Origin: a virus
Lineage: Duplodnaviria > Heunggongvirae > Uroviricota > Caudoviricetes
Reading direction: 5' to 3' (one strand)
DNA: 19,074 nucleotides
IMG/VR virus record: IMGVR_UViG_2563366969_000006
Below the pieces are notes generated by a model. That model saw only the letters and a program-made list of their open reading frames with translations. It was not told the DNA's origin and did not search any database. A program made the position numbers and the translations under genes. Shown here one piece after another: positions 1,484-19,074 of this stretch. Every line of letters begins with the position of its first letter. The first letter of the stretch is position 1.

Positions 1484-1798
1484 TCACGATAGTTCCGTTT
1501 TGTTGAATTCAATTATATCAAGGTCAGAACTTTCGTAATCCTTACCGAATAAAGCAAAACATATCGCGTCAAGTTCTCTCTTATGTTTGGACGCCCGATC
1601 ATAATTACCACCCCAACAGCAAATGAATCCACCAAGTACTGCTGATTCAAAAAGTAATGATGCTGCATCAATATGTCTGAACCAGGAGTCTATAAGTAAA
1701 GCAGAGAGTGATATTAATGTTCCCCACCCGCCAATCCTTCTCCATTTCTCAGCTTCATATTTAAGAGAAGCAATATATTCAATTTTATCTCTCGTCAT
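1484..1798 (-). CDS. Small membrane protein (104 aa, two predicted transmembrane helices), last gene of the large operon; function unknown
   Basis: ORF with TGATG stop-start overlap to the upstream gene; two hydrophobic segments (IGGWGTLISLSALLIDSWF and ASLLFESAVLGGFICCWGG); lower GC than upstream genes. Confidence 0.6.
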   Translation of the reverse strand: MTRDKIEYIASLKYEAEKWRRIGGWGTLISLSALLIDSWFRHIDAASLLFESAVLGGFICCWGGNYDRASKHKRELDAICFALFGKDYESSDLDIIEFNKTELS

Positions 1799-4554
1799 CA
1801 GTTCCCCACCGCCTTTCCAAAATCCGGTGCTCTACGTGGCGCAATAGCACCCGGTTCCCACCAACTCGTTATGTCGAACTCCCGTTGCGCGCGGTCCCTT
1901 ACTCGATCATTGTAACCAGGGTTTGCCATCTCCTGAAGTTGTTGCAATATCAGGTGATTGGTTATCGCTTTCGCATACCACAGGTTTGCGAATGGGGTGA
2001 TCATGCGGGCTGTTTTCAGTGCATCGGCACCGAATGATGTTTCTTCACCCTGTAGAGCCTTCTGTGGGTTAGTAATCAGTAATTTTGTTAACTGCTCTGC
2101 AAAGCTCAACACAGGGCCACCCATAGTGGCACCGATGCTGGAGCCATATTGCGTATGGTCCTGGAAAATAAAATCACCGTAGATACCGAACGAACCACCT
2201 TTCAGTAAAGCCTGAACCCATGTGGTTGGTTTTGTCATATCCAGCGGATCATTACCATTTAACAAACTGTTCATCTGGATCGCAAACATACCAGCAAGAG
2301 TTGTTCCCCCGATATATGAGGCCAGAAATTTAATGGCCGGAACGGTGTCCAAATCCCGTGTTCTGTTAACAAGTTGCCGAAATCCAGCAAATGGGGTTGT
2401 TTTGAAGAGCATGAAGCTCTTCATTAACTCGCCAGCATCATCACGGGCATATGTATCAATACCCGTAGCGGTGGTCACAGCATTGGTCATCTCACCGTGC
2501 GTAATTCCCAGCAATTTCTGGGCTGCTTCAGCGCGTGCATTACGAATCATGCGCGTGATGGTCTGCTCAGCCTCAGCGTCGAATGCTTCTTTCATCCGTT
2601 TCAGGCGTTCTGGAGGGAGATCTCCAAGGGCTGCCAGTGCCTTTTCACTCCCGGCACGAATCCGGGTAATACGGTCTGCCATAATGTCGGCTATTACGTT
2701 ATCGGGCACAGCGTAAATCGCGTCTGGCGTCATCCCCATATGCCCGGCAGTAGTCATCGGCCTGAGTTCTGCCGCTGCCATGATGGCCCAGTCCTCATTG
2801 CTCCATCCCTTGTTAGCCAGAATGGTTTTATCGGTTCCTTTCATATCGTCCAGCGTCTTAAATTTTCTGGTCAGCTCGCCAATGTTTTTGTACATCAGGA
2901 GACCAAACGACGCTTTGTTTGCGCGGTCCATAGCGATCAGCCCGGACCACTTCAGTGTCTTCTCTGCGAACCAGCCAGTTATGCCGCGAGACAAGTCAAA
3001 CCCGCCCATTTTCGAAACCACAGCAGCATGTGAATCCACCAGCAGACCGAGTTCAGCATTCGCCTTTTTGGCATCTCCACTAAACAGGTTTTTGATAGTG
3101 TTAACGGAAAGCCGCATTCCACCACGGGTAAAGCCCAGCGCCTGCGCATTTGCCCGCATAATTGCCTGGTCGCTGGTTGCTGTCAGTACGCTGGTGCCAA
3201 GCATGGCGCTGGTCATCAGGTTACGCAGACCACCAACTGCTGAAGAGAACACACTCGATGAAGCGACACCATTTAGGCCAGCCATTGAGTTGAACATACG
3301 GGCAACTAATTTGGCCTCATCCTCCATTTCTTTTTTGCGTTTCCCGCCTGTTACTGCGCGCTTATAGATGCGATCCAGTACCAGGGAAAAGTTTCTTTCG
3401 GCGTCCGGACCAAAGGCTTTAACGACGCCCAAATCCCTGGATGATGATTGCAGGTGCGACATCATCACCCCCACCAGCGGCTGCTGAGTGTATCGTTCCA
3501 TATAGGCGAAGTGTGACTGCGCATCCTTGAACGCCATCACCCTGTGCTGAGAACCACGGCTCTTTATTCCTCCGGCTCCCATAAATGTACCAGGCTCAAT
3601 TTTGTTTGCCCCATCAGTGGCCTTCGTTTCAAAGATCGCTTCCAGTGCCTGACGGTACTCGACGTCATTCATAATGCTGCCGTCAGGATTAACGTAATTG
3701 CTGCGATCCTGCGTGTTGTAAGCGTCATCAACCCATTTCTGGCGGGCAAACTCAATCGGTGGCTGGCGACCTGAAAGACGTGCTGTAGCTTGCTCTGCCA
3801 CTGGTAACGATGCCAGCCATTCTTCGCGCCCGGCATTGCGAATAAGGTCAGCATCATCCACATATGGCGTATGCCAGTCTTCTCGCAGGCCTATGTCAAA
3901 GCCATTGTCGTTCATCTCATGACGAACACGGCCTGTTACATCCTTCCAAATCTGTGCAATTTTCTTCGCCAGGGGATTCCCGGTATCTTCGCCATATATT
4001 TCTTTCAGGATCTGGAGTTGTGCAGACTTTGCCGCCTGCCTGTCGAATACACTCCGAAACCGCTGCTCTCCAAGCGCCCTGCTCTGCTCGAAGAATTTGC
4101 GGACGTCATCACCTGCTTTTAGAAGTTCAGCACTGAGCTGACGGGACCAGTCCTGATATGCCCCAATTGCAAGTTCTTCAGCAGAAGTAACGGAGATATC
4201 AGCTTTGTCTCTCGATCGTCGGCCAGCAAAAATAAACTGCTGCAAATTAACAGGTGTCTGCTGATCAGGCGGGATGTTAGCATCGAGAGTGTCAGTAATT
4301 TTACTGATGGCGATCGCATTCTGGGCAACACGCTGTCTTTTCTTGTACACATCATGAACCACACGCTGGCGTACCAGTTCTGCTGCATCCATGTATGTTT
4401 GAGCATCAGGAATACCACTTTTGCCTTCTTTGGCATTCTTTCTGTGCACATGCTGCACAGCTTCTTTGATACGATCTTCAATATTTTTCAGCTCATCAGC
4501 CTTTGGCTGGCGACCAAGTGTCTGCGCAATAGCTTCCACACATGCCTGTTTCAT
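1798..4554 (-). CDS. Large hypothetical protein (about 918 aa), Gly/Ala-rich hydrophobic stretches, no NTPase motif; possibly internal-virion/ejection-like
   Basis: Long ORF. Likely start is the ATG at 4552-4554, preceded by GAGGAA and in a TAATG overlap with the upstream stop, rather than the unsupported ATG at 4575. No Walker A found on reading. Confidence 0.75.
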   Translation of the reverse strand: MKQACVEAIAQTLGRQPKADELKNIEDRIKEAVQHVHRKNAKEGKSGIPDAQTYMDAAELVRQRVVHDVYKKRQRVAQNAIAISKITDTLDANIPPDQQTPVNLQQFIFAGRRSRDKADISVTSAEELAIGAYQDWSRQLSAELLKAGDDVRKFFEQSRALGEQRFRSVFDRQAAKSAQLQILKEIYGEDTGNPLAKKIAQIWKDVTGRVRHEMNDNGFDIGLREDWHTPYVDDADLIRNAGREEWLASLPVAEQATARLSGRQPPIEFARQKWVDDAYNTQDRSNYVNPDGSIMNDVEYRQALEAIFETKATDGANKIEPGTFMGAGGIKSRGSQHRVMAFKDAQSHFAYMERYTQQPLVGVMMSHLQSSSRDLGVVKAFGPDAERNFSLVLDRIYKRAVTGGKRKKEMEDEAKLVARMFNSMAGLNGVASSSVFSSAVGGLRNLMTSAMLGTSVLTATSDQAIMRANAQALGFTRGGMRLSVNTIKNLFSGDAKKANAELGLLVDSHAAVVSKMGGFDLSRGITGWFAEKTLKWSGLIAMDRANKASFGLLMYKNIGELTRKFKTLDDMKGTDKTILANKGWSNEDWAIMAAAELRPMTTAGHMGMTPDAIYAVPDNVIADIMADRITRIRAGSEKALAALGDLPPERLKRMKEAFDAEAEQTITRMIRNARAEAAQKLLGITHGEMTNAVTTATGIDTYARDDAGELMKSFMLFKTTPFAGFRQLVNRTRDLDTVPAIKFLASYIGGTTLAGMFAIQMNSLLNGNDPLDMTKPTTWVQALLKGGSFGIYGDFIFQDHTQYGSSIGATMGGPVLSFAEQLTKLLITNPQKALQGEETSFGADALKTARMITPFANLWYAKAITNHLILQQLQEMANPGYNDRVRDRAQREFDITSWWEPGAIAPRRAPDFGKAVGN

Positions 4555-6614
4555 TATGGGTTCCTCAAGAAGCACGCTGCTGCTACAGAATAAACCTTCG
4601 ATTCGTTCTGGACTGTCTTAATCTGTTCATCCAACTCAGCCAGGAGATCAGAAAGTTTTGTCGGGTTTCCGGTTTCCGGGTGAGCTATAGTCAGCTCAGG
4701 ATTGGCAACAGCCATGTCCCTGGCAGCCATAAGGTCATAGCTGTTGGATGAGAGAACCTGCCCTGTATCTGGATCAACGCTGATGTCCCCTCTGTGTTCA
4801 CCAGCCGATGAGAAAGCACTTTCAGCACGAGGGACAGGCGATTCACTAATTGGCTCTGATGATGTTTCGTATCTGACACCATTTTCTTCAAAAACCTTTT
4901 GTATTTCATGGTATTGCTCTTGGTAAGTATCAGATATATCTGATCGCAATGGACCATCAAGCCCTCGCGCCATCCCCCCAACATTTACAGGCTGACCATC
5001 ATTAAGTTGCCTGTATGCTTCATCCATGGCGTCAACATGGCTGTTGATGCTCTCATTGCTGGTATGAAGCACTGGTGACGATTCAATATCGTAATGAAGC
5101 CCCTCATTCAAAATGTGGGCTGCATCAATATCGCTTGGTTTTATTCTTTCCCTCGCCCGGATACCAAAAACTTTTTCTACTGCGGCTTCCAGTTTCATAT
5201 TGCGAAGACGCATACTTACGAGTAACCGTAACTGCTCAGGTGTAACGGTTCCAACCTGAATACCACTGTATCTGAATATATAGGCTTTAAAACCTGAAAT
5301 AATTTTTTCCCATGATGAAACGCTTGTCTTTAGAGATGGATTTACTGCATGTGCGGCAACTTCTTCAGCGTACAACCACTCAGGATATGTTTCAGGGTAC
5401 TCACCCCTTTTCTTATATTCATAATATTGTGACATCCCATATGCAAATTCAGGATAGTCAGAATGCTTGTTTGCAGATTTAAGTACAGCATTAGCTAGCT
5501 TTCTGGCCTTCCAGTCAGGGTAATGGCGCTGCTCAAGATGAAGCGCCTCGTGATGAAGGGTTTCTAACAGTTCTTCATGGTCTTTTAATCCATTAATATT
5601 TATTCTTATTATTGGTTCTTTTCCGGAAGCTACTGTCACATGACCTTTATTCAGAAGTATTTCTCCATCACTATTTTTTATTGCTGGTTCATTAATAAGT
5701 TCTATTACTCCTGAATCAGATAAATCACGAACCATTGACTCAATGTTACCATCAGGAGATTGCTGATAATGTTCACCAAAAGTTGATTTTATTTCTTCTG
5801 CAGAAATGTTCGACTCTGTACCATCATGGTTATTATGGGTAGTCAGGTGATGAACGCCACCAAAGACCCCGCCTAAAACGGCATCGACTAACATCGCCTG
5901 ACCGTCAAATACCCGGTACTGTTTTGCCATCTCCGTGTAGCCTTTTTCCTCCAGTGTTGCGCCTACTGAGTAACGGTTCAGTCCACCGAATCCGGTGTTG
6001 ATTGCCACACCTGAGGCAATGCGCGTTGCCAGTGTGGTGCCGACGGCAGCGGGTAAGGCCATACCCACAGCATTGAAAAGGCTCTGCTGCGTTGCCAGGT
6101 TACGCGCTGTAGCCTCGTCTACTCCCTTCCCTTTAAAATCCTGATAGGACTGCTCATACGTAGAACTGAAGGCTGTAGCAGCGCCGATGAGCGGACCACC
6201 AAACATAGTTGTTCCGATTGCAGGAACAAATTTACCAAGCTCATTTAATACCTCAGCCGCCATTCCCTGGCTGCCTGCATCAGGCTTCACATAGCTGCGG
6301 GCATCCTGTAACTGTTTTCCGATCGTGTCGTATGTATCATTCAGTGTTTTGTCAGCATCAGGGAACATCTCCCGAAAAATATTAACTGTCGGTGCCACGT
6401 CTGCGGTAAATGCCGGATCGCTAATCAGACGCTTGCTGAATCCGACGGCAGACTGCGCGAGACCGAGAGCCCCCTCCGCCACGCCGCTCAAAAGTGCAGT
6501 ACCTGAACCCTGGAAGGGAGTCGGATCGTAGTCTTCTGGCCTTGCTGGGTTGGCAACTGTTTTGTCGTCAATCCATGCCTGACCTTCTGGAGCCAAAGAA
6601 AAAACATCAGACAT
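4554..6614 (-). CDS. Large hypothetical protein (686 aa) with an HExxH (HEALH) zincin-like motif and Gly/Ala-rich hydrophobic region
   Basis: Long ORF; TAATG overlap with the upstream 843-aa gene; GAGGG ribosome-binding site; ETLHHEALHLEQRH encoded around 5534-5560; no P-loop. Confidence 0.75.
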   Translation of the reverse strand: MSDVFSLAPEGQAWIDDKTVANPARPEDYDPTPFQGSGTALLSGVAEGALGLAQSAVGFSKRLISDPAFTADVAPTVNIFREMFPDADKTLNDTYDTIGKQLQDARSYVKPDAGSQGMAAEVLNELGKFVPAIGTTMFGGPLIGAATAFSSTYEQSYQDFKGKGVDEATARNLATQQSLFNAVGMALPAAVGTTLATRIASGVAINTGFGGLNRYSVGATLEEKGYTEMAKQYRVFDGQAMLVDAVLGGVFGGVHHLTTHNNHDGTESNISAEEIKSTFGEHYQQSPDGNIESMVRDLSDSGVIELINEPAIKNSDGEILLNKGHVTVASGKEPIIRININGLKDHEELLETLHHEALHLEQRHYPDWKARKLANAVLKSANKHSDYPEFAYGMSQYYEYKKRGEYPETYPEWLYAEEVAAHAVNPSLKTSVSSWEKIISGFKAYIFRYSGIQVGTVTPEQLRLLVSMRLRNMKLEAAVEKVFGIRARERIKPSDIDAAHILNEGLHYDIESSPVLHTSNESINSHVDAMDEAYRQLNDGQPVNVGGMARGLDGPLRSDISDTYQEQYHEIQKVFEENGVRYETSSEPISESPVPRAESAFSSAGEHRGDISVDPDTGQVLSSNSYDLMAARDMAVANPELTIAHPETGNPTKLSDLLAELDEQIKTVQNESKVYSVAAACFLRNP

Positions 6615-9145
6615 TATTCAACCCTCACGACAATAGCTTTATTGGTTCTGGGATCTGTTGCCCAGCGTCCGCTACCATTTACAAGCCGATACCGGTTATT
6701 GCCGATATTAACTGGCGTGAAATTTGACACTGCATTTACGTTAAGTCCGGCATCTTTCAGTGCTTGTTTCGCAGATGTGGTATAGCGATCTTTGAAAGTA
6801 GATTTATCCATGCCAAAAGGCATTACAACGTCGCCGCCATTAAAACCATTGTATATACCGCCAGTAGCATACTTCACGGCATCAGCTACAATGTCTGTAT
6901 CAGGCATACTGGTTCTTACCGTAGAGGCATCACCAGATTGATAAGCTATTCCTGCGTAAGCGGCTTTGAAAAGGCTATAACTGATCTGGCGTAACTGCGG
7001 GTTACGGGCAAATGCATTACCTACCTGTTCGTCGAAAGCGTCTTTCATCTTATCTTCGCTCGGCAACTGTACCGGAGTTATGCCCGCATTCTTCATGGCC
7101 TTCGTCGGATTCAGTAGTTGGTCGCCGGAAAGAATAACCTTTGCAACGTCGTACTTGTTCATCGTCGGCTTATACCCGATGAACTGACTATATGGGATCG
7201 TCGGCCTGGTGTTGTCGTACTGGTTATCCGGCGTGCCCAGCAGCAGCGCAGAATAGGCTGTTGCCGCACTGTTCGGAGCAATTACAGATGCCACCTGCCG
7301 TATTGCTGGCGCAGGCAGCTTCTCCCCCATGCTCTGCAACAGTTTAATTGTCTGGTCAACGTTCTGAGTGCCGCGCACCTGCTGTGCCAGCGCAGCCGCC
7401 TCTTCACTGTTGAGGAGTGGGGCATTAATTCCCAACGCGCGTAAGCTTTCCTGCGACGAGAAACGGTTAGCCACCTCGGCAGTGATGTCGTCAGGGTTGT
7501 TGCTGGTGATCGGCTTATAGGCTCCGATTTCCACCGCTGCACTAAACGGATTATTCTGCCTCTGGGTTATTACCTTCGTGGCTGCCGCCGATACCCGGTC
7601 GAATAACTCCGCACGAGACGCATACCCCTCCCCTGTCTCACCAGTATCCGGGCGTAATTGCTCAACATATGCGGTAATGCTGCTTGTCGGCATGTTGCGG
7701 AAAGAGCCTATATACTGTCCGGCGATCTGCAAATTTCTGAACTCGGTATATCGCAGGTTTCCTTCTCTGACACCATAAGCAGCAATGAACTCACCCTCAC
7801 CAGGCGGGTTAGGAAATTCAACGCCACGCATATACGCAGCCGTTGCATCGCGAACCCGGCTTTCGAGCATCGTTCTATATTCAGCCTGCTGCTGTCTGGC
7901 TAATGCATCCGTCTGTCGCAACACGCTGGCCTGATCTGATTCACTTAAAGCATCGAACCAGGCTACACCGGTATAACGTTTATTTTTTGTCGGTAGCTGA
8001 GAAAGCCCCAGTGCGGCACTAACGCCAGCGGCCAATTGCTGATCACTGTACGGCTGACTGCCTTGCTCATGATGAATAATTGCTTTGCACAGAGATTTCA
8101 GTGTGTCAGGATTTGATGCGTCAAGCGGCTGGTCAGGAGTTACACCGAGCTGAGCACATACTGCCCGTATATAAGCATCAGTTTTATTATCATCACTGGC
8201 CGGTGCCCAGCGATTAATTATTTCGCTGATGGTGTCATAACCCTGACGCTGATACGACAGCAAATTGCGACCAAGCGCGCGAATACCGTGTTCAGGGGTT
8301 TCGAATTTGGCAAAGCGACCATCATCACCAGTCTGCCCAACCCACGGATTAGTTTTGCTGTATTCAAGATTGCCGGGGTTATTGTTGCGTATACCGCGGG
8401 TACGATCGGAAGAGCCACTATCTGCTACAGCACGGCGAGATCCAGCAGCAGTATCGCTTAACTCGCCATTTTGCTGTCTTACCTGAAGATAGTTTGCTCC
8501 AATAGCATTTTGAGCAGTTGCTTTTGCTGTTGCTTCTTTAAACTCGATTTTCTTGGCCTGGATTTGCTCGTCGCTCCAGCCATGCGCAATACCGTAATCC
8601 TCAATTTGCTGGAAAGTTTGCGTATTAGCCAATATGTATGCTGCGTTGTCGCCATATAATGCTGAGGCATTTTTACCATTATTCAGCAGTGTCGCCTGAA
8701 ACTGGCCTTCTTCGTAGGCATTTATTTGCCCTATCTCGTACCTCCCGGCCTGCGTAGCGAACTGAATACGCTGCTGCTGCGCCTGCTGCATGAAAGCATT
8801 ACGAGCCTGTTCATCCGGCAGCGACATAGCCAGTTGTTCGATCTGAGCATCAAACTGCTGTGTATACTCATGGCCTTTTCCAATAGCATTTTTCCCTTTC
8901 AGGTTAAGCAATCCTGTTTCAGGATTATTCAGCAGATCACTGCCTGTCTGACTGAGTTTAAGGGATGCCTCCTGAATCAAGGCAATATTGGCACGCTGTT
9001 TTGCCTGACCAAAAACATCAATTGCCTCTGCCCCTGCCCGAACAAAAGCATCACCAATACCTGGCTGAGAAAACGTCTGCAAGCCTGCTGACTGAACTCC
9101 ACGGCTCTCAACCTGACGTCCGGATACTGTTGGTACGACTGGCAT
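6614..9145 (-). CDS. Large hypothetical protein (843 aa), Gln/Ala-rich, with a conserved-looking block GIRNNNPGN...W.G...G.FA.F (possible peptidoglycan-hydrolase-like or virion-associated domain; unverified)
   Basis: Long ORF with a strong AGGAGG ribosome-binding site 6 nt upstream of the ATG; motif block encoded around 8155-8395; no P-loop. Confidence 0.75.
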   Translation of the reverse strand: MPVVPTVSGRQVESRGVQSAGLQTFSQPGIGDAFVRAGAEAIDVFGQAKQRANIALIQEASLKLSQTGSDLLNNPETGLLNLKGKNAIGKGHEYTQQFDAQIEQLAMSLPDEQARNAFMQQAQQQRIQFATQAGRYEIGQINAYEEGQFQATLLNNGKNASALYGDNAAYILANTQTFQQIEDYGIAHGWSDEQIQAKKIEFKEATAKATAQNAIGANYLQVRQQNGELSDTAAGSRRAVADSGSSDRTRGIRNNNPGNLEYSKTNPWVGQTGDDGRFAKFETPEHGIRALGRNLLSYQRQGYDTISEIINRWAPASDDNKTDAYIRAVCAQLGVTPDQPLDASNPDTLKSLCKAIIHHEQGSQPYSDQQLAAGVSAALGLSQLPTKNKRYTGVAWFDALSESDQASVLRQTDALARQQQAEYRTMLESRVRDATAAYMRGVEFPNPPGEGEFIAAYGVREGNLRYTEFRNLQIAGQYIGSFRNMPTSSITAYVEQLRPDTGETGEGYASRAELFDRVSAAATKVITQRQNNPFSAAVEIGAYKPITSNNPDDITAEVANRFSSQESLRALGINAPLLNSEEAAALAQQVRGTQNVDQTIKLLQSMGEKLPAPAIRQVASVIAPNSAATAYSALLLGTPDNQYDNTRPTIPYSQFIGYKPTMNKYDVAKVILSGDQLLNPTKAMKNAGITPVQLPSEDKMKDAFDEQVGNAFARNPQLRQISYSLFKAAYAGIAYQSGDASTVRTSMPDTDIVADAVKYATGGIYNGFNGGDVVMPFGMDKSTFKDRYTTSAKQALKDAGLNVNAVSNFTPVNIGNNRYRLVNGSGRWATDPRTNKAIVVRVE

Positions 9146-9547: not shown

Positions 9548-9573
9548 CAAAAAAAAGCCGGATTGCTCCGGCT
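9548..9573 (-). terminator. Rho-independent terminator separating the replication/SSB/ProQ block from the large operon
   Basis: On the minus strand, stem AGCCGGA / TCCGGCT with a 4-nt loop, followed by a run of 8 T. Confidence 0.7.
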
Positions 9574-9813
9574 CTGTGCTTACTTCTGGTAGTTACGCCA
9601 TACTGATTTCCCGATCCCATCTATCCCCATTTCTTTTTCAGTGCGTTTAAGCGACCGTTTCAGGTCTTCTAAATTATCCGGTTGCTTCGGTGGCCTCTGC
9701 GCCTTCCTGGAACATTCCAGTCGTCGCATTGATATGTAATACCGTTCCTTGTCAGTTCCCCAACTGCATTACTTCACCCCATCGCGCCGCCGCTCTTCGG
9801 TACAGGGTTTTAG

Positions 9814-14425: not shown

Positions 14426-14455
14426 GACATACACCAATTTTTAGGAGATCCAGAA

Positions 14456-14635
14456 ATGGCAACTGGTGCAAAGAACGCAAAATCACAAATGACAACTGTC
14501 AGAATCCCACATGAAGTAATGGATGATATTGAGCAACTTAAAGAACCTGGCGAAAGTACCGCTGGTTTTTTAGTTACTGCCGCAAAAGGCGAGATCAAAC
14601 GCCGCCAGCGTCGCAAGGCCAAAGAGCAGGAGTAA
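14456..14635 (+). CDS. Small putative DNA-binding regulator (59 aa), possibly ribbon-helix-helix-like
   Basis: ATG at 14456 with AGGAGA ribosome-binding site 8 nt upstream; N-terminal TTVRIPHEVMDDIEQL resembles a beta-strand-helix RHH start; only plus-strand gene block in the island. Confidence 0.5.
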   Translation: MATGAKNAKSQMTTVRIPHEVMDDIEQLKEPGESTAGFLVTAAKGEIKRRQRRKAKEQE

Positions 14636-14692
14636 CCATCACCAGCGCCGTGGTGCGGTGAACTGTGGCGCACAGGGTTACAGGTATCTACG

Positions 14693-14890
14693 ATGACTGA
14701 CAAATCATTAAAGAAATTATCCTCATCCAGGAAAAAACAACGCAAAAATGCGGTAAGCGAACAAGAACAGGAAAGATTTGCGCCATGTGCGTTTGTCCTT
14801 GAGAAGTTCTTAAAAGAGTACAGGCGCACAAAAATGGAATCGCATACCTGGAAAACATCGCAGTATGGCGATGCTAAAGAGCAGGAATAG
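14693..14890 (+). CDS. Small basic hypothetical protein (65 aa)
   Basis: ORF downstream of the 59-aa gene, weak ribosome-binding site; shares a duplicated 3' end (AKEQE-stop) with it; followed by a terminator. Confidence 0.35.
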   Translation: MTDKSLKKLSSSRKKQRKNAVSEQEQERFAPCAFVLEKFLKEYRRTKMESHTWKTSQYGDAKEQE

Positions 14891-15616: not shown

Positions 15617-16433
15617 GGCTGCTCACCTCCATGCGGCGGGCTAACCAGCGTTGCGAAAGGCGAATTAATTCAGCTTTCCGCTGGTGGTAGTCCAGGCCTA
15701 ACTCAATCAGCGTGATATTGCTCTGCTCAAGGTAAGAAAGGTGCTCAAGCTGCAACACGCTCATGTGGTCGCGTGGTTCACCTGTGATGCCGTTCGCCTG
15801 CGCCCACTGTTTTGCAGTCATGCCACCCAGCACGATACGCGCCAGCATATTAGCTTCCGTAGTGTAGTGGTGCTGGAGCGTGTTTTTACCCAGTTCAGCC
15901 CGGTACGCCTCCAGCGCGGCACACATTGGCTTAAAGTAGCTGGCTACGGTGATACGGGCTTTCAGTTCCCGGCGTAACGCTGCGGAACGTACAGGCGCTA
16001 CCTTGTGTAGCTCCTCCTCGCATTTGATGAAGTACTGACGAACGGCGCGGCCCTGTTCGGTGCGTTCGATCATTGCCAGTTCTTTCGCCATTCCGACACT
16101 TAACAGATAGTCTTTACCGGGTCTGCCAGAGTGCTTAATCTTGCTGTAAGCCTCGCCATTCGGGCTTTTCCCCAAATTTGGGGAAATTGTTTTATGGACT
16201 GAGTAATCGTACCCAATGGTGAAGTCATATTCAGAGATACGATCAGTGATCCATGTAGAGAAGTCTTTTCCCACGCCCAACGCTTTGTGTAACGCTTTTG
16301 CGCTAACAACAGCGGCTTCACGCCCGCCAATAACGCCGGAAATAACCGGGATAATTTCGCCGAAATTTTGCAGATTCTGGTTTTCAGGCCGAACAAAGCC
16401 CTGCCCCTGTACGGGCGTTTTTCGCAGTTTCAT
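15609..16433 (-). CDS. AntA/AntB-like antirepressor family protein (274 aa)
   Basis: N-terminal segment (AVVSAKALHKALGVGKDFSTWITDRISEYDF) resembles the AntA domain; GGAG ribosome-binding site 5 nt upstream of the ATG. Confidence 0.55.
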   Translation of the reverse strand: MKLRKTPVQGQGFVRPENQNLQNFGEIIPVISGVIGGREAAVVSAKALHKALGVGKDFSTWITDRISEYDFTIGYDYSVHKTISPNLGKSPNGEAYSKIKHSGRPGKDYLLSVGMAKELAMIERTEQGRAVRQYFIKCEEELHKVAPVRSAALRRELKARITVASYFKPMCAALEAYRAELGKNTLQHHYTTEANMLARIVLGGMTAKQWAQANGITGEPRDHMSVLQLEHLSYLEQSNITLIELGLDYHQRKAELIRLSQRWLARRMEVSSHA

Positions 16434-16508
16434 AAAAACTCCGCTATCGAATTAAGTTACTTTTTATTTGCTAGTGGATAGCTTGGGCAATAACCCGTAG
16501 CTATTTAA

Positions 16509-16706
16509 TCAGGCAGCCGTTCCGCGTGATTCGGCAATACGCTGATTGATCCATTCGTCAATTTCACTTTCAACGAAAGCAATCGCTCGCGAGCCAATTT
16601 TAACTGATGCAGGAAATTTACCTTGCCCCATAAGGCGATAAATCCATGCCTTGCTATATCCAGTTCTACGCTGAACTTCTGTTAAACGAATAAGCGTATT
16701 TGACAT
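16509..16706 (-). CDS. alpA: AlpA-family transcriptional regulator / excisionase-like protein (65 aa)
   Basis: Size, position next to a P4-type integrase, and pattern (LTEVQRRTGYSKAWIYRLMGQGKFP...ESEIDEWINQR) characteristic of AlpA. Confidence 0.8.
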   Translation of the reverse strand: MSNTLIRLTEVQRRTGYSKAWIYRLMGQGKFPASVKIGSRAIAFVESEIDEWINQRIAESRGTAA

Positions 16707-16775
16707 CTATTTACCTCATAACGTCTACTCAATTTGACGAGGTAATCATGGCACAGAAATAACGAATATTTTCAT

Positions 16776-16918
16776 ACCCTCAGGCCTAATGGTTACCGGA
16801 AGGAAATTAACCCTAAGGGTGATGGTAATCGGGAGGAAATCTACCCTAAGGGTGATGGTAAAATTGACGGGGAAGATAAAAAAATACCCTCAGGGTAACA
16901 GTAAATCACCCTCAGGGT
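16776..16918. promoter_or_regulatory. Array of four palindromic operator-like sites ACCCT-N-AGGGT (16810-16820, 16843-16853, 16886-16896, 16908-16918) plus a partial site at 16776-16784, in the alpA upstream region
   Basis: Seen directly; sites 1-2 share the longer unit ACCCTAAGGGTGATGGTAA; located in the 227-bp intergenic region 5' of alpA. Confidence 0.55.
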
Positions 16919-16933
16919 ATGCGGTATGGTGCG

Positions 16934-17737
16934 TTAATCCGGCTTTGCGTTCTTTTGGCTGTTGTCTCGGTTAATAGGGCAGGCAGTCCTCTCTATGAGC
17001 GTTGCAAGAGCATTACTTGCCCCCCACTGCTTAAGCTCCCTGGTTATCGCTTCTTGATTTCCCCTGGTGGCAAAATCATTTTCTGGATCGTAATTGGCCC
17101 ACTCTCTGTTTCTAATCTCAATAGCCTTAGCTAATGGGTCTTTATCCCAGTATTTATATAAGTGTATCGGGCGCTCTTGCTCTAACTGCTCTATCCTTGC
17201 CCTTAACTCTGCGTTTTCTCTTTCCAGCATTGCGATTTGGGATAATAAATCATCCTCTGTACGCAACTCTTTCTTTTCAATATCGCGTCCTTGTACCTCG
17301 TCATTTTCAGAAGAGTTAGCGCCTTCCAGCTTCGTTAACGCGTCAAGGACATCGGGAAAAATTGCGAAAATTTCACCCCTTATAAATCCAATGTTCTCAA
17401 ATTCGGGATCTTCCCAATAACCGGACACCAGAAAACCATTTTCATCCCTCTCACCAGGTAAACAACCATGTTTCCGAACCGCATCCAGATTTCTATAAAG
17501 AACATCATAATCAAATTCATCCCGATACGGGTTACAAAAAGATTCCAACAGCTTAAATTCATTTACTGTGTACAGGCGGATATGTTCTCCGCTTATTCTC
17601 CTGAGTATCCAAGTTATGAGATCTGAAACATCATAATCATCACCAGCGACCTTAAGCACGACCTCAAGAAATTCACGTAAAGAAATAAAATCTTTTTTGT
17701 ATTCGTTTAATTCGGCATGAATATCAATCATACGCAC
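16934..17737 (-). CDS. Hypothetical acidic protein (267 aa) with predicted coiled-coil, between integrase and alpA
   Basis: ORF with GAGGTG ribosome-binding site; the segment LLSQIAMLERENAELRARIEQLEQER looks like a coiled coil; no enzymatic motif recognised. Confidence 0.6.
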   Translation of the reverse strand: MRMIDIHAELNEYKKDFISLREFLEVVLKVAGDDYDVSDLITWILRRISGEHIRLYTVNEFKLLESFCNPYRDEFDYDVLYRNLDAVRKHGCLPGERDENGFLVSGYWEDPEFENIGFIRGEIFAIFPDVLDALTKLEGANSSENDEVQGRDIEKKELRTEDDLLSQIAMLERENAELRARIEQLEQERPIHLYKYWDKDPLAKAIEIRNREWANYDPENDFATRGNQEAITRELKQWGASNALATLIERTACPINRDNSQKNAKPD

Positions 17738-17859
17738 ACCTCAGCGTCCTCTACTGTAGTGGCTGTGCCAGCCCGTCGAGGTATACGGTTTTTCGGGAGC
17801 GACCCTAGACACAGCTTTTTCTTTCGTCGCTCAAAGTCTACTACTGTATACTCAACCAG

Positions 17860-19074
17860 TCATCCACATTTTCCGAACTTGCCATGCACCACGTTGCCGC
17901 CCTGTTCCAGTGAGTCCATATAGTCGGCGTACCACTGGAGCATCTCGCGCCGCCCGTCCAGATATTGCGCATGATTGTACGTGCCACGAATTGAGTTCTT
18001 ATCAACGTGTGCAAGCTGCGTTTCTATCCACGCGGTGTTATAGCCCTGCTCATGTAAAATCGTGCTCATCGTGTGCCGGAACCCATGACCAGTAACGCGC
18101 CCAGAATAGCCAATACGACGAATAAGCACGTTCATCGCCATTTCACTCATCGGCTTACTGTGCTGGATTCGACCAGGGAAAATAAACTGATACTGCCCCG
18201 TCATGTGTTTTAACTGTTCCAGAATAGCGATCGCCTGTTCTGAAAGCGGCACACAATGAGGACGGCGCATCTTCATTCGTTCTTTAGGCACTTCCCACAA
18301 ACGATTATCAAAATCGATCTCCTGCCATTCTGCCTGTCGTAATTCCCCTGGCCGGAGCCCTGTCAGAATCAATAATCGCATACCCAGCTTGACGATCTGG
18401 CTTCCGGTGTACGTATTAAGAACGCGGAAAAATTCCGGCAGTTCGTCGGCCTTCAAATAGGCATAATGCTCTTTTTTGTGTGGAGCAAATGCGCTTGCCA
18501 GATCTGGTGCGGGGTTATATTCAGCGCGTCCGGTGATGATTGCGTACCGGAACACCTCGCCGCATCGCTGGCGAACCTTACGCAATTTTTCGGTCGCCCC
18601 ACGGTCATTAAGACGGGAGAGAACCGCAAGCAACTCCATTGGCTTAATTTCTGCGATCGGCCTGCCGCCAATGTACGGAAAAACGTCTTTTTCAAACGTC
18701 TCGATCATTTCCTCGGCGTATGACGATGACCACCTGTCGATCCTCTTTTCATACCATTCGCGAGCGATACCCTCAAAAGTATTGCCAAATTTGCTCGCCT
18801 GTTCTCGCTTTTGAGCTTTTCTGGCCTCACTTGGATTTATACCACCAGCAAGAAGCCTTTTAGCCTCATCCCTTGCCGCTCTGGCATCAGACAGAGACAC
18901 ATCAGGGTACACGCCCAACGACAACATTTTGGGCTTTCCTGCAAATCTGTAACGTAGTCGCCACCCTTTCGAGCCGTTCGGCTCAATGAGTAACGAAAGC
19001 CCGTTACCGTCATTGAGTGTATAAGCCTTTTCTTTCGGCTTCGCGCGCCTGATAGCAAGGTCTGAAAGCAGCAT
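17860..19074 (-). CDS. int: Tyrosine recombinase, P4-family integrase (404 aa)
   Basis: N-terminus LSDLAIRRAKPKEKAYTLNDGNGLSLLIEPNGSKGWRLRY and C-terminal catalytic region HGFRHTMST...LAHVDKNSIRGTYNHAQYL follow the P4/CP4-57 IntA pattern; start codon coincides with the window end. Confidence 0.9.
   Translation of the reverse strand: MLLSDLAIRRAKPKEKAYTLNDGNGLSLLIEPNGSKGWRLRYRFAGKPKMLSLGVYPDVSLSDARAARDEAKRLLAGGINPSEARKAQKREQASKFGNTFEGIAREWYEKRIDRWSSSYAEEMIETFEKDVFPYIGGRPIAEIKPMELLAVLSRLNDRGATEKLRKVRQRCGEVFRYAIITGRAEYNPAPDLASAFAPHKKEHYAYLKADELPEFFRVLNTYTGSQIVKLGMRLLILTGLRPGELRQAEWQEIDFDNRLWEVPKERMKMRRPHCVPLSEQAIAILEQLKHMTGQYQFIFPGRIQHSKPMSEMAMNVLIRRIGYSGRVTGHGFRHTMSTILHEQGYNTAWIETQLAHVDKNSIRGTYNHAQYLDGRREMLQWYADYMDSLEQGGNVVHGKFGKCG

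Follow-up and report, generated by a model that had tools for sequence, protein, structure and literature searches.

What decides when a Gram-negative phage-inducible chromosomal island (PICI) wakes up, and how does a helper phage reach the gene in charge? In EcCICFT073 and EcCIMP1, the master switch is alpA, which activates itself and is induced by the helper; Gram-negative PICIs have no known master repressor, and the helper route to alpA is unknown (PMC6092414; PMC11773190). We studied this question in IMG/VR virus record IMGVR_UViG_2563366969_000006, a 19,074-nucleotide stretch of DNA (referred to here as the window) that is part of a chromosomal Escherichia coli island integrated at tRNA-Gly. 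The intergenic region 5' of its alpA gene contains an array of short palindromes, which the original prediction described as a cooperative operator array for a dimeric regulator of island or helper origin and as the possible point where helper induction is sensed. We propose that the array serves as operator for a protein of the island itself, encoded by orf267 just upstream of the array: dimers of the orf267 protein would bind the sites and gate the alpA promoter, likely as a repressor that is relieved by a helper signal. In our estimate, this reading has about an even chance of being right.

The genes and sites on which the proposal is built are the following.

16509..16706, minus strand: alpA, 65 aa, master activator/excisionase family (PF05930, E 2e-19)
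16776..16786: Site D, degenerate and proximal, ACCCTCAGGcc, 2 mismatches; centre 75 nt upstream of the alpA ATG
16789..16854: two tandem 33-bp units with one palindrome each, the source of between-strain copy-number variation
16810..16820: Site C, ACCCTAAGGGT, exact; centre 109 nt upstream of the ATG
16843..16853: Site C', ACCCTAAGGGT, exact, in the extra 33-bp unit; centre 142 nt upstream of the ATG
16886..16896: Site B, ACCCTCAGGGT, exact; centre 185 nt upstream of the ATG
16908..16918: Site A, ACCCTCAGGGT, exact; centre 207 nt upstream of the ATG
16934..17731, minus strand: orf267, 265 aa from the ATG at 17731 or 267 aa from the GTG at 17737; candidate array binder
16967..17257, minus strand: region of orf267 coding for a coiled coil and a conserved four-helix C-terminal domain

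The spacer between orf267 and alpA is 227 nt long and, with alpA on the minus strand, holds four exact ACCCTNAGGGT palindromes and one degenerate copy. The four near-identical 11-bp palindromes and partial fifth of the original prediction were thus borne out, the four as exact matches, before a gene that is indeed alpA. None of 200 dinucleotide-preserving shuffles of the window contained at least four matches with at most one mismatch (mean, 0.34). A search for ACCCTNAGGGT elsewhere in the 19-kb window, as had been suggested, returned four 2-mismatch matches only, which is chance level. The sites follow each other at start-to-start gaps of 34, 33, 43, and 22 bp, and Site A begins 15 nt past the orf267 stop codon. 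Site B is followed by T7 on the minus strand, which gives it a weakly terminator-like look; this T-run is not kept in the wider family outside some E. coli islands. On the gene strand Site D reads GGCCTGAGGGT, and its intact half is AGGGT only. Site D was nevertheless unchanged in the nine E. coli islands and the one Citrobacter island that we compared, bar a 1-nt change in one of them (L009), and its Kluyvera counterpart, TGCCTGAGGGT, lies at the same distance from the ATG.

The number of full sites varies between strains. The two 33-bp units (16789-16821 and 16822-16854), which contain the sites at 16843 and 16810, are 85% identical and represent a recent duplication. In near-identical E. 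coli islands the full sites number 3, 4, 5, or 6, owing to the clean gain or loss of 33-bp or 22-bp units. Such expansion and contraction was seen among the 97-100% identical islands of strains cq9, 55989, ARS-C101, and ISHS7 (L002-L005): the extra 33-bp unit is missing from 55989 and is present in 2 to 4 copies in cq9 and ISHS7. Because every change in array length is a multiple of 11 bp, the helical phase is kept. The site count of four is therefore strain specific, and the conserved core of the array, judged by these comparisons, is three full sites plus the degenerate proximal site.

The sites outlast the DNA around them. We compared islands whose orf267 homologues are 73, 67, 59, 35, and 32% identical to that of the window, and a wider set was obtained by an AlpA scan of one genome per species, which gave 80 further loci. 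The inter-site spacers had diverged and the palindromes were kept over this whole range of identity, and sites recurred in Kluyvera, Symbiopectobacterium, Cedecea, Atlantibacter, and Photorhabdus. Across lineages the site centres lie 75, 107-109, 151-153, and 173-175 nt upstream of the alpA ATG. The site at 107-109 nt was kept in all lineages examined, and the distal pair A-B, 21-23 bp apart, was kept in E. coli, Citrobacter, Kluyvera, and Symbiopectobacterium islands. Moreover, 24 of 27 adjacent spacings deviate by no more than 1.5 bp from a multiple of 11. A logo of 35 sites extends the consensus to tTACCCTnAGGGTAa, with the innermost T/A pair kept in at least 34 of them. Symmetric pairs were broken in 30 cases, and not one break was compensated, which favours recognition of DNA by a protein over an RNA hairpin; an Rfam search of the palindrome array found no family at E≤0.1. 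Together, these properties fit DNA that is read by a symmetric protein, in the manner of an operator.

The protein that goes with the motif is orf267. Loci were scored as positive when at least two sites with at most one mismatch lay within 300 nt upstream of alpA, and the orf267 type was assigned with a hidden Markov model of the C-terminal domain (C-domain). Sites were present in 13 of the 15 alpA loci positive for the C-domain and in none of the 75 other alpA loci (Fisher p 8e-9 for the non-redundant set; background, 6 sites in 581 kb), an association that is exclusive. When all open reading frames (ORFs) within ±3.5 kb of alpA were considered, only orf267 tracked the motif (9/9 versus 1/31), and the lone exception is an 81-aa remnant of the C-domain, next to which lies a site. 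The motif follows the C-terminal ~70 residues of the protein. A metagenomic homologue that is only 27% identical in this region, encoded with a divergent AlpA on a contig of 54% GC, has 4-5 sites in a 197-nt spacer, and another distant subtype has ACCCT/AGGGT-based sites before a different small helix-turn-helix (HTH) gene. A diverged C-domain subtype found in Cedecea and Atlantibacter pairs with a shifted motif, ACCmTGAkAGT, and a second, remotely similar subtype (L006, L013, and L029) pairs with AATGGTGG-type repeats. Since the motif always accompanies the C-domain, comparison of loci makes orf267 the probable regulator of the timing of island induction. Clustered and over-represented dyads, sequence kept while the flanks diverge, and covariation with a single protein are the marks of an operator array. 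This part of the original prediction is supported, and is strengthened by the phasing, the conservation and the uncompensated asymmetry of the sites; its helper-encoded variant found no phage homologue to rest on.

Other proteins did not behave in this way. The AlpA of L006 is 95% identical to that of the window, with residues 5-64 and the DNA-binding region identical, yet L006 has no ACCCTNAGGGT; it carries other repeats and a different ORF upstream of alpA. Conversely, islands with 75%-identical AlpAs (L031 and L028) do have the motif. Arm-type sites of the integrase were rejected, as the same integrase (WP_000772650) is common to the motif-positive L003 and the motif-negative L006 and L007, and the array lies more than 2 kb from the tRNA attachment site. 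AntA is at least 81% identical everywhere and shows no covariation with the motif, and neither do the YlcI/YnfO genes, which are the nearest to a small ribbon-helix-helix (RHH)-like protein that had been named as a candidate. Three binders had been put forward, namely AlpA, this RHH-like protein, and the 267-aa protein; the C-domain association favours the last, natural swaps speak against AlpA, and the lack of covariation speaks against the RHH-like/YlcI protein.

The architecture of orf267 is that of a variable part joined to a constant one: a hypervariable N-terminal domain, a disordered linker, a coiled coil (coded by about 17174-17257), and the conserved four-helix C-domain (coded by about 16967-17176), which carries the signature DPL..AIEIRN.EW...A..IE..ACPI.R. 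In the family alignment the N-terminal ~170 aa are hypervariable and the C-terminus is nearly invariant. Between lineages, the DNA of the C-domain retains only 63-75% identity, and 15-24 of every 68 codons differ synonymously; such a load of synonymous changes indicates purifying selection and not recent sharing. The N- and C-terminal halves also occur apart within the 92-member family, which shows that the protein is modular. An AF2 model of the coiled coil and four-helix domain reached a pLDDT of 93, and a fold search for the C-domain retrieved no known DNA-binding fold. Sequence searches of orf267 against Pfam, PHROG, PADLOC, and PDB gave no match beyond coiled-coil noise. A search for homologues in 50,697 phage genomes found none, and a second homologue search added a few more distant members among the matches listed.

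In Symbiopectobacterium (L028 2545-3278) and Kluyvera (L031 2456-3252), the gene between int and alpA is split into a ~100-aa ORF and a ~145-150-aa ORF, and the latter holds the coiled coil and the C-domain. Proteins of 109-158 aa that consist of the coiled coil and C-domain only also form separate clusters in the protein library. The split and short forms may be natural sensor-less or two-polypeptide versions of orf267.

How the array could act on alpA depends on the promoter and on the transcripts that enter the region, for which the following features are relevant.

16711..16745, minus strand: alpA leader hairpin, TTACCTCGT ... ATGAGGTAA, sequestering the Shine-Dalgarno (SD) sequence (RNAfold)
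16745..16753, minus strand: putative extended -10 of the alpA promoter, TGcCATGAT, read from the sequence
17748..17815, minus strand: int-alpA RNA motif, RF02996 (46.9 bits versus a gathering score of 35.8)
17860..19074, minus strand: tyrosine integrase gene int (Pfam domains), adjoining tRNA-Gly just outside the window

A consensus promoter scan of the region found no sigma-70 -35/-10 pair and no -35 element, so that the promoter assignment rests on reading the extended -10. We infer that TGcCATGAT is the extended -10 of a weak alpA promoter without a -35 element. Relative to a promoter in this position, Site D would fall near -43 and Site C near -77, and both would occupy one face of the helix. 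The stretch between int and orf267 showed no promoter- or terminator-like signal; orf267 is therefore probably co-transcribed with int, reading toward alpA, and is probably expressed together with int in the quiescent island.

In the mechanism that we propose, orf267 would dimerise through its coiled coil, and the small, conserved C-terminal helical domain would read the compact palindrome tTACCCTnAGGGTAa. Dimers would cooperate on the phased sites at 207, 185, 142, and 109 nt and on a deliberately weak site at 75 nt. The bound array would cover the region upstream of, and overlapping, the -35 zone of the weak extended -10 alpA promoter. Made with int in the quiescent island, orf267 would hold the self-activating alpA off and perhaps also block read-through from int-orf267. 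A helper product would then engage the hypervariable, swappable N-terminal domain and cause release, as with the Stl repressor of Staphylococcus aureus pathogenicity islands (SaPIs), and the released AlpA would amplify itself, leading to excision and replication. It is plausible that helper induction is sensed at the array, as originally suggested.

We favour repression for four reasons. First, orf267 is seemingly co-expressed with int. Second, AlpA is self-activating and toxic when unleashed, and its over-expression impairs growth (PMC6092414). Third, short forms without the N-terminal domain exist. Fourth, the design, with a variable putative sensor and a conserved putative binder, parallels that of SaPI Stl.

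Several observations weigh against our proposal. Position -43 is the classic position of a class II activator, and if the extended -10 is right, Site D would occupy it, which makes activation a live alternative. The proximal Site D is also the weakest site, which is unusual for a simple repressor. The C-domain coding DNA is only 15-60 bp from the array, so that physical linkage could account for some of the co-occurrence. The 3-6 sites among near-identical islands mean that the exact number of sites is not critical. Finally, the well-studied PICIs EcCICFT073 and EcCIMP1 have no orf267-like ORF; whatever orf267 does, it is not a universal component.

The alternative that survives best keeps the same binder and reverses the sign. 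The orf267 C-domain would then belong to a helper-gated activator, whose strong distal sites load the weak site at about -43 and recruit RNA polymerase. Strong distal sites with a weak proximal one are typical of cooperative activators. The extended -10 that we inferred (16753-16745) lacks a -35 element, Site D and Site C would fall at about -43 and -77 on one helical face, and in L007, an island with another gene upstream of alpA, the proximal palindrome is centred at about -41 from an analogous TGcTTCAAT. Set against this, the quiescent island seems to express orf267 along with int, natural forms exist that retain the coiled coil and C-domain without the N-terminal domain, and constitutive activation of a harmful, self-amplifying switch would be costly. 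In addition, an alternative -10, TATGAA, lies directly 3' of Site D and would put Site D over the core promoter. We consider activation unlikely, though a serious competitor.

A protein of the helper phage or of the host might instead bind the array, with the C-domain co-occurring by tight linkage or by contacting that factor. The alpA genes of related PICIs are induced by helper phages via an unknown factor, the C-domain has no recognisable DNA-binding fold, and the array directly adjoins the C-domain coding DNA. We screened 2.9 million IMG/VR viral contigs for two sites 20-24 bp apart and found this arrangement in 25 contigs, of which 21 belong to the same island family; the remaining 4 are unrelated, being high-GC contigs or tandem-repeat contexts. 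Together with the 0 orf267 homologues in 50,697 phage genomes, this result leaves the helper-encoded binder of the original prediction unsupported, and it argues against mimicry of a helper-phage operator, since nearly all motif pairs in IMG/VR are island copies. Linkage alone is an inadequate explanation, as the association outlasts saturating divergence of the spacer, spans several genera, and persists through swaps of the N-terminal domain. A host factor, in turn, fails to explain why the motif is missing from other island types that share the hosts and the integrase and have almost identical AlpAs. This alternative is improbable in our judgement. Helper-dependent induction, packaging, and transfer are known for EcCICFT073 and EcCIMP1 only (PMC6092414; PMC11773190).

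The palindromes could also act in RNA with no dedicated protein, by forming small hairpins that stop transcripts of int-orf267 from running on into alpA or insulate alpA from them. Two of the sites score as weakly terminator-like on the gene strand, one of them followed by T7, and no other terminator stands in the way of transcription from int-orf267 toward alpA. A stem of this kind would measure only 4-5 bp, however, and the innermost T/A pair, which would lie in the loop and be unconstrained by pairing, is kept in at least 34 of 35 sites. The total lack of compensation among the 30 symmetry breaks, the loss of the T-run outside some E. coli islands, and the silence of Rfam at the array leave this explanation very little room. 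Least probable of all are autoregulatory or excisionase sites for AlpA, a notion that draws on the activation by AlpA of its own promoter in EcCICFT073 and EcCIMP1 and on the phased repeats typical of Xis-family proteins, but that founders on the natural swaps in both directions (95%-identical AlpA without ACCCTNAGGGT upstream, 75%-identical AlpA with it), on the 0 of 75 other alpA loci with the motif, and on the fact that the repeats here are palindromes and not direct repeats.

The proposed pairing of orf267 with its array may be one case of a more general arrangement. The slot between int and alpA is highly polymorphic across L006-L092: it may be free of ORFs or filled by one of at least 12 unrelated types, 200-345 aa in length. 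Several of these types have repeats of their own before alpA. The L007 type has its own palindrome, CCGCAATTGCGG, twice before alpA. In the spacer between the slot ORF and alpA, L036, L046, and L062 carry AATATTAC/AATATTCC four times, L035 carries CCGGTTTATA four times, L027 and L033 have a TACCGGAA repeat, and L015, L023, and L038 have an ACTTCCA repeat. This pattern suggests that the int-alpA slot is a general, exchangeable cassette of regulator and operator, and a literature search found no description of a regulator or operator in the slot. More tentatively, and with somewhat less confidence than we place in the operator itself, orf267 might found a new family of satellite master regulators, with a new helical DNA-binding fold, the ACCCTNAGGGT operator, and swappable sensors; the slot would then be the missing Stl-like module of many Gram-negative PICI-like satellites.

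In its way of working, the array and orf267 would resemble an operator-repressor immunity module and the Stl (Rpr) system of SaPIs and Gram-positive PICIs. Stl is likewise a satellite-encoded regulator beside int, with operators before the excision-replication genes, a highly divergent sensor part and a separate DNA-binding part, and the derepression by a helper protein that is proposed here has its parallel there (PMC6092414). Stl, however, has an HTH and is divergent from the genes that it represses, whereas orf267 has no HTH, is co-directional with alpA, and has its sites downstream of its own gene. Also unlike the Stl system, the putative binding domain of orf267 is C-terminal, after the coiled coil, and the regulated gene is that of an activator, AlpA. 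We found no relationship between orf267 and Stl in sequence or fold. Membership in the Stl/Rpr type was accordingly rejected on both the HTH and the gene orientation, given that int, orf267, and alpA all lie on the minus strand.

The lambdoid OR/OL operators are similar in that several phased dyads of graded strength stand by a key promoter and that specificity co-varies with the binding module. The exchange of modules that produces lambdoid immunity types also has a counterpart in the 12 or more slot types. The palindrome of the array is more compact, at 11 bp with half-site centres 6 bp apart, and is nearer to bZIP or RHH targets; its sites reach ~170 bp upstream of the promoter, whereas lambdoid operators overlap two divergent promoters. 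In satellite P4, the late promoter P_LL, which is served by Vis, helper Cox, and Ogr/Delta, stands before an AlpA-family gene, reads the status of the helper, and has upstream arrays of protein sites. The array shares with P_LL the position at a satellite promoter before an AlpA-family gene, the role as the point where helper status would be read, and the arrayed upstream sites. It differs in that its sites are palindromes, not direct repeats like the Cox boxes, and that they track an island protein rather than AlpA or a helper factor. A P2/P4 Ogr/Delta promoter was rejected, as TGT-N12-ACA (near -55) has no match in 16400-17100 and its 4 matches elsewhere in the window do not exceed chance. 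PMC6092414 refers to the Vis protein of P4, a member of the AlpA family.

EcCICFT073 and EcCIMP1 share with the island the int gene at a tRNA, the alpA master switch, antA/bro, a primase, and the absence of structural genes. In EcCICFT073, alpA apparently comes straight after int, as suggested by the next gene being called ORF3 (PMC6092414), and in EcCIMP1 the spacer is 427 nt long and contains no large ORF; both lack orf267 and ACCCTNAGGGT. Because the EcCIMP1 spacer is different and free of ORFs, its reporter data are not transferable to the array. The coupling of helper to island is an acknowledged gap in Gram-negative PICIs (PMC6092414; PMC11773190), and the array, together with a modular protein of orphan fold before alpA, offers a concrete candidate for this step in one widespread subfamily. 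If the wider reading of the slot is true, the Stl-like module for immunity and induction that many Gram-negative PICI-like satellites seem to be missing would lie there, which would explain how helpers switch on alpA. The toolbox of DNA-binding domains would also gain one whose 11-bp target is defined. Exchangeable slot cassettes could also predict helper specificity and the cross-immunity of co-resident satellites.

Two RNA features flank the proposed switch. In sequence-by-sequence RNAfold predictions, the SD was paired in 29 of 32 distinct alpA leaders, in spite of very different arm sequences (for example, CTCGTAA/TTACGAG, CTCCTGTAG/CTACAGGAG, and CACCTCA/TGAGGTG); the hairpin matched no Rfam family. 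Each of these hairpins follows an AT-rich, -10-like block, which abuts the 5' arm in other island types too. Owing to this arrangement, promoter-derived transcripts may lack the anti-SD arm, which read-through from int-orf267 would keep, by analogy with the fold-back protection of IS10. The RF02996 motif occupies the same int-to-alpA interval as the array and is conserved in the same islands, but it is separate from the palindromes (17748-17815), which do not match it. It sits between int and orf267, not beside alpA, and ends 17 nt before the orf267 ATG. In 17 of 20 related loci the motif occupied this place irrespective of the ORF that came next; as it precedes whichever ORF fills the slot, it may be the leader of the slot gene and not that of alpA.

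The int-alpA region is present at 90-100% identity in 181 of 5426 complete E. coli genomes, at tRNA-Thr in some of them, and relatives of the island occur across Enterobacterales. The core genes (int, orf267, alpA, antA, bro, Icd-like, DUF4222, DUF927 primase, SSB, ProQ/FinO, and perC) are all on the minus strand. With int at a tRNA, alpA, a primase, and mostly one direction of transcription (Pfam: integrase, Phage_AlpA, AntA, Bro-N, DUF927, SSB), the island has the layout of Gram-negative PICI-like satellites (PMC6092414, PMC10111431, PMC11773190). No phage structural genes are annotated in the island, and no packaging or capsid-redirection gene was identified in the window.

At the accessory end, three large, consecutive, and partly overlapping ORFs of 843, 686, and 925 aa occupy 1798-9145 on the minus strand, joined by a 104-aa ORF at 1484-1798. 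These ORFs had no Pfam or PADLOC match, and they could be uncharacterised cargo or a defence system. In many relatives (L011, L015, L024, L028, L031, L038, and L042), P4-type immunity RNAs (Rfam C4, isrK, and c4-a1b1) lie downstream of alpA in the antA/bro zone. None reaches the gathering score in the window, which has in the corresponding place (14438-14890, plus strand) a YlcI/YnfO-family gene and a gene for a 65-aa hypothetical protein. The PerC-family regulator gene (~9550-9775, minus strand) is frameshifted in the window, as annotated by RefSeq for the region of E. coli SCU-105 that matches it at 100% identity (L001 13151-13376). The PerC-like gene of the related island EcCIMP1 is reported to repress expression of the locus of enterocyte effacement (LEE) (PMC11773190).
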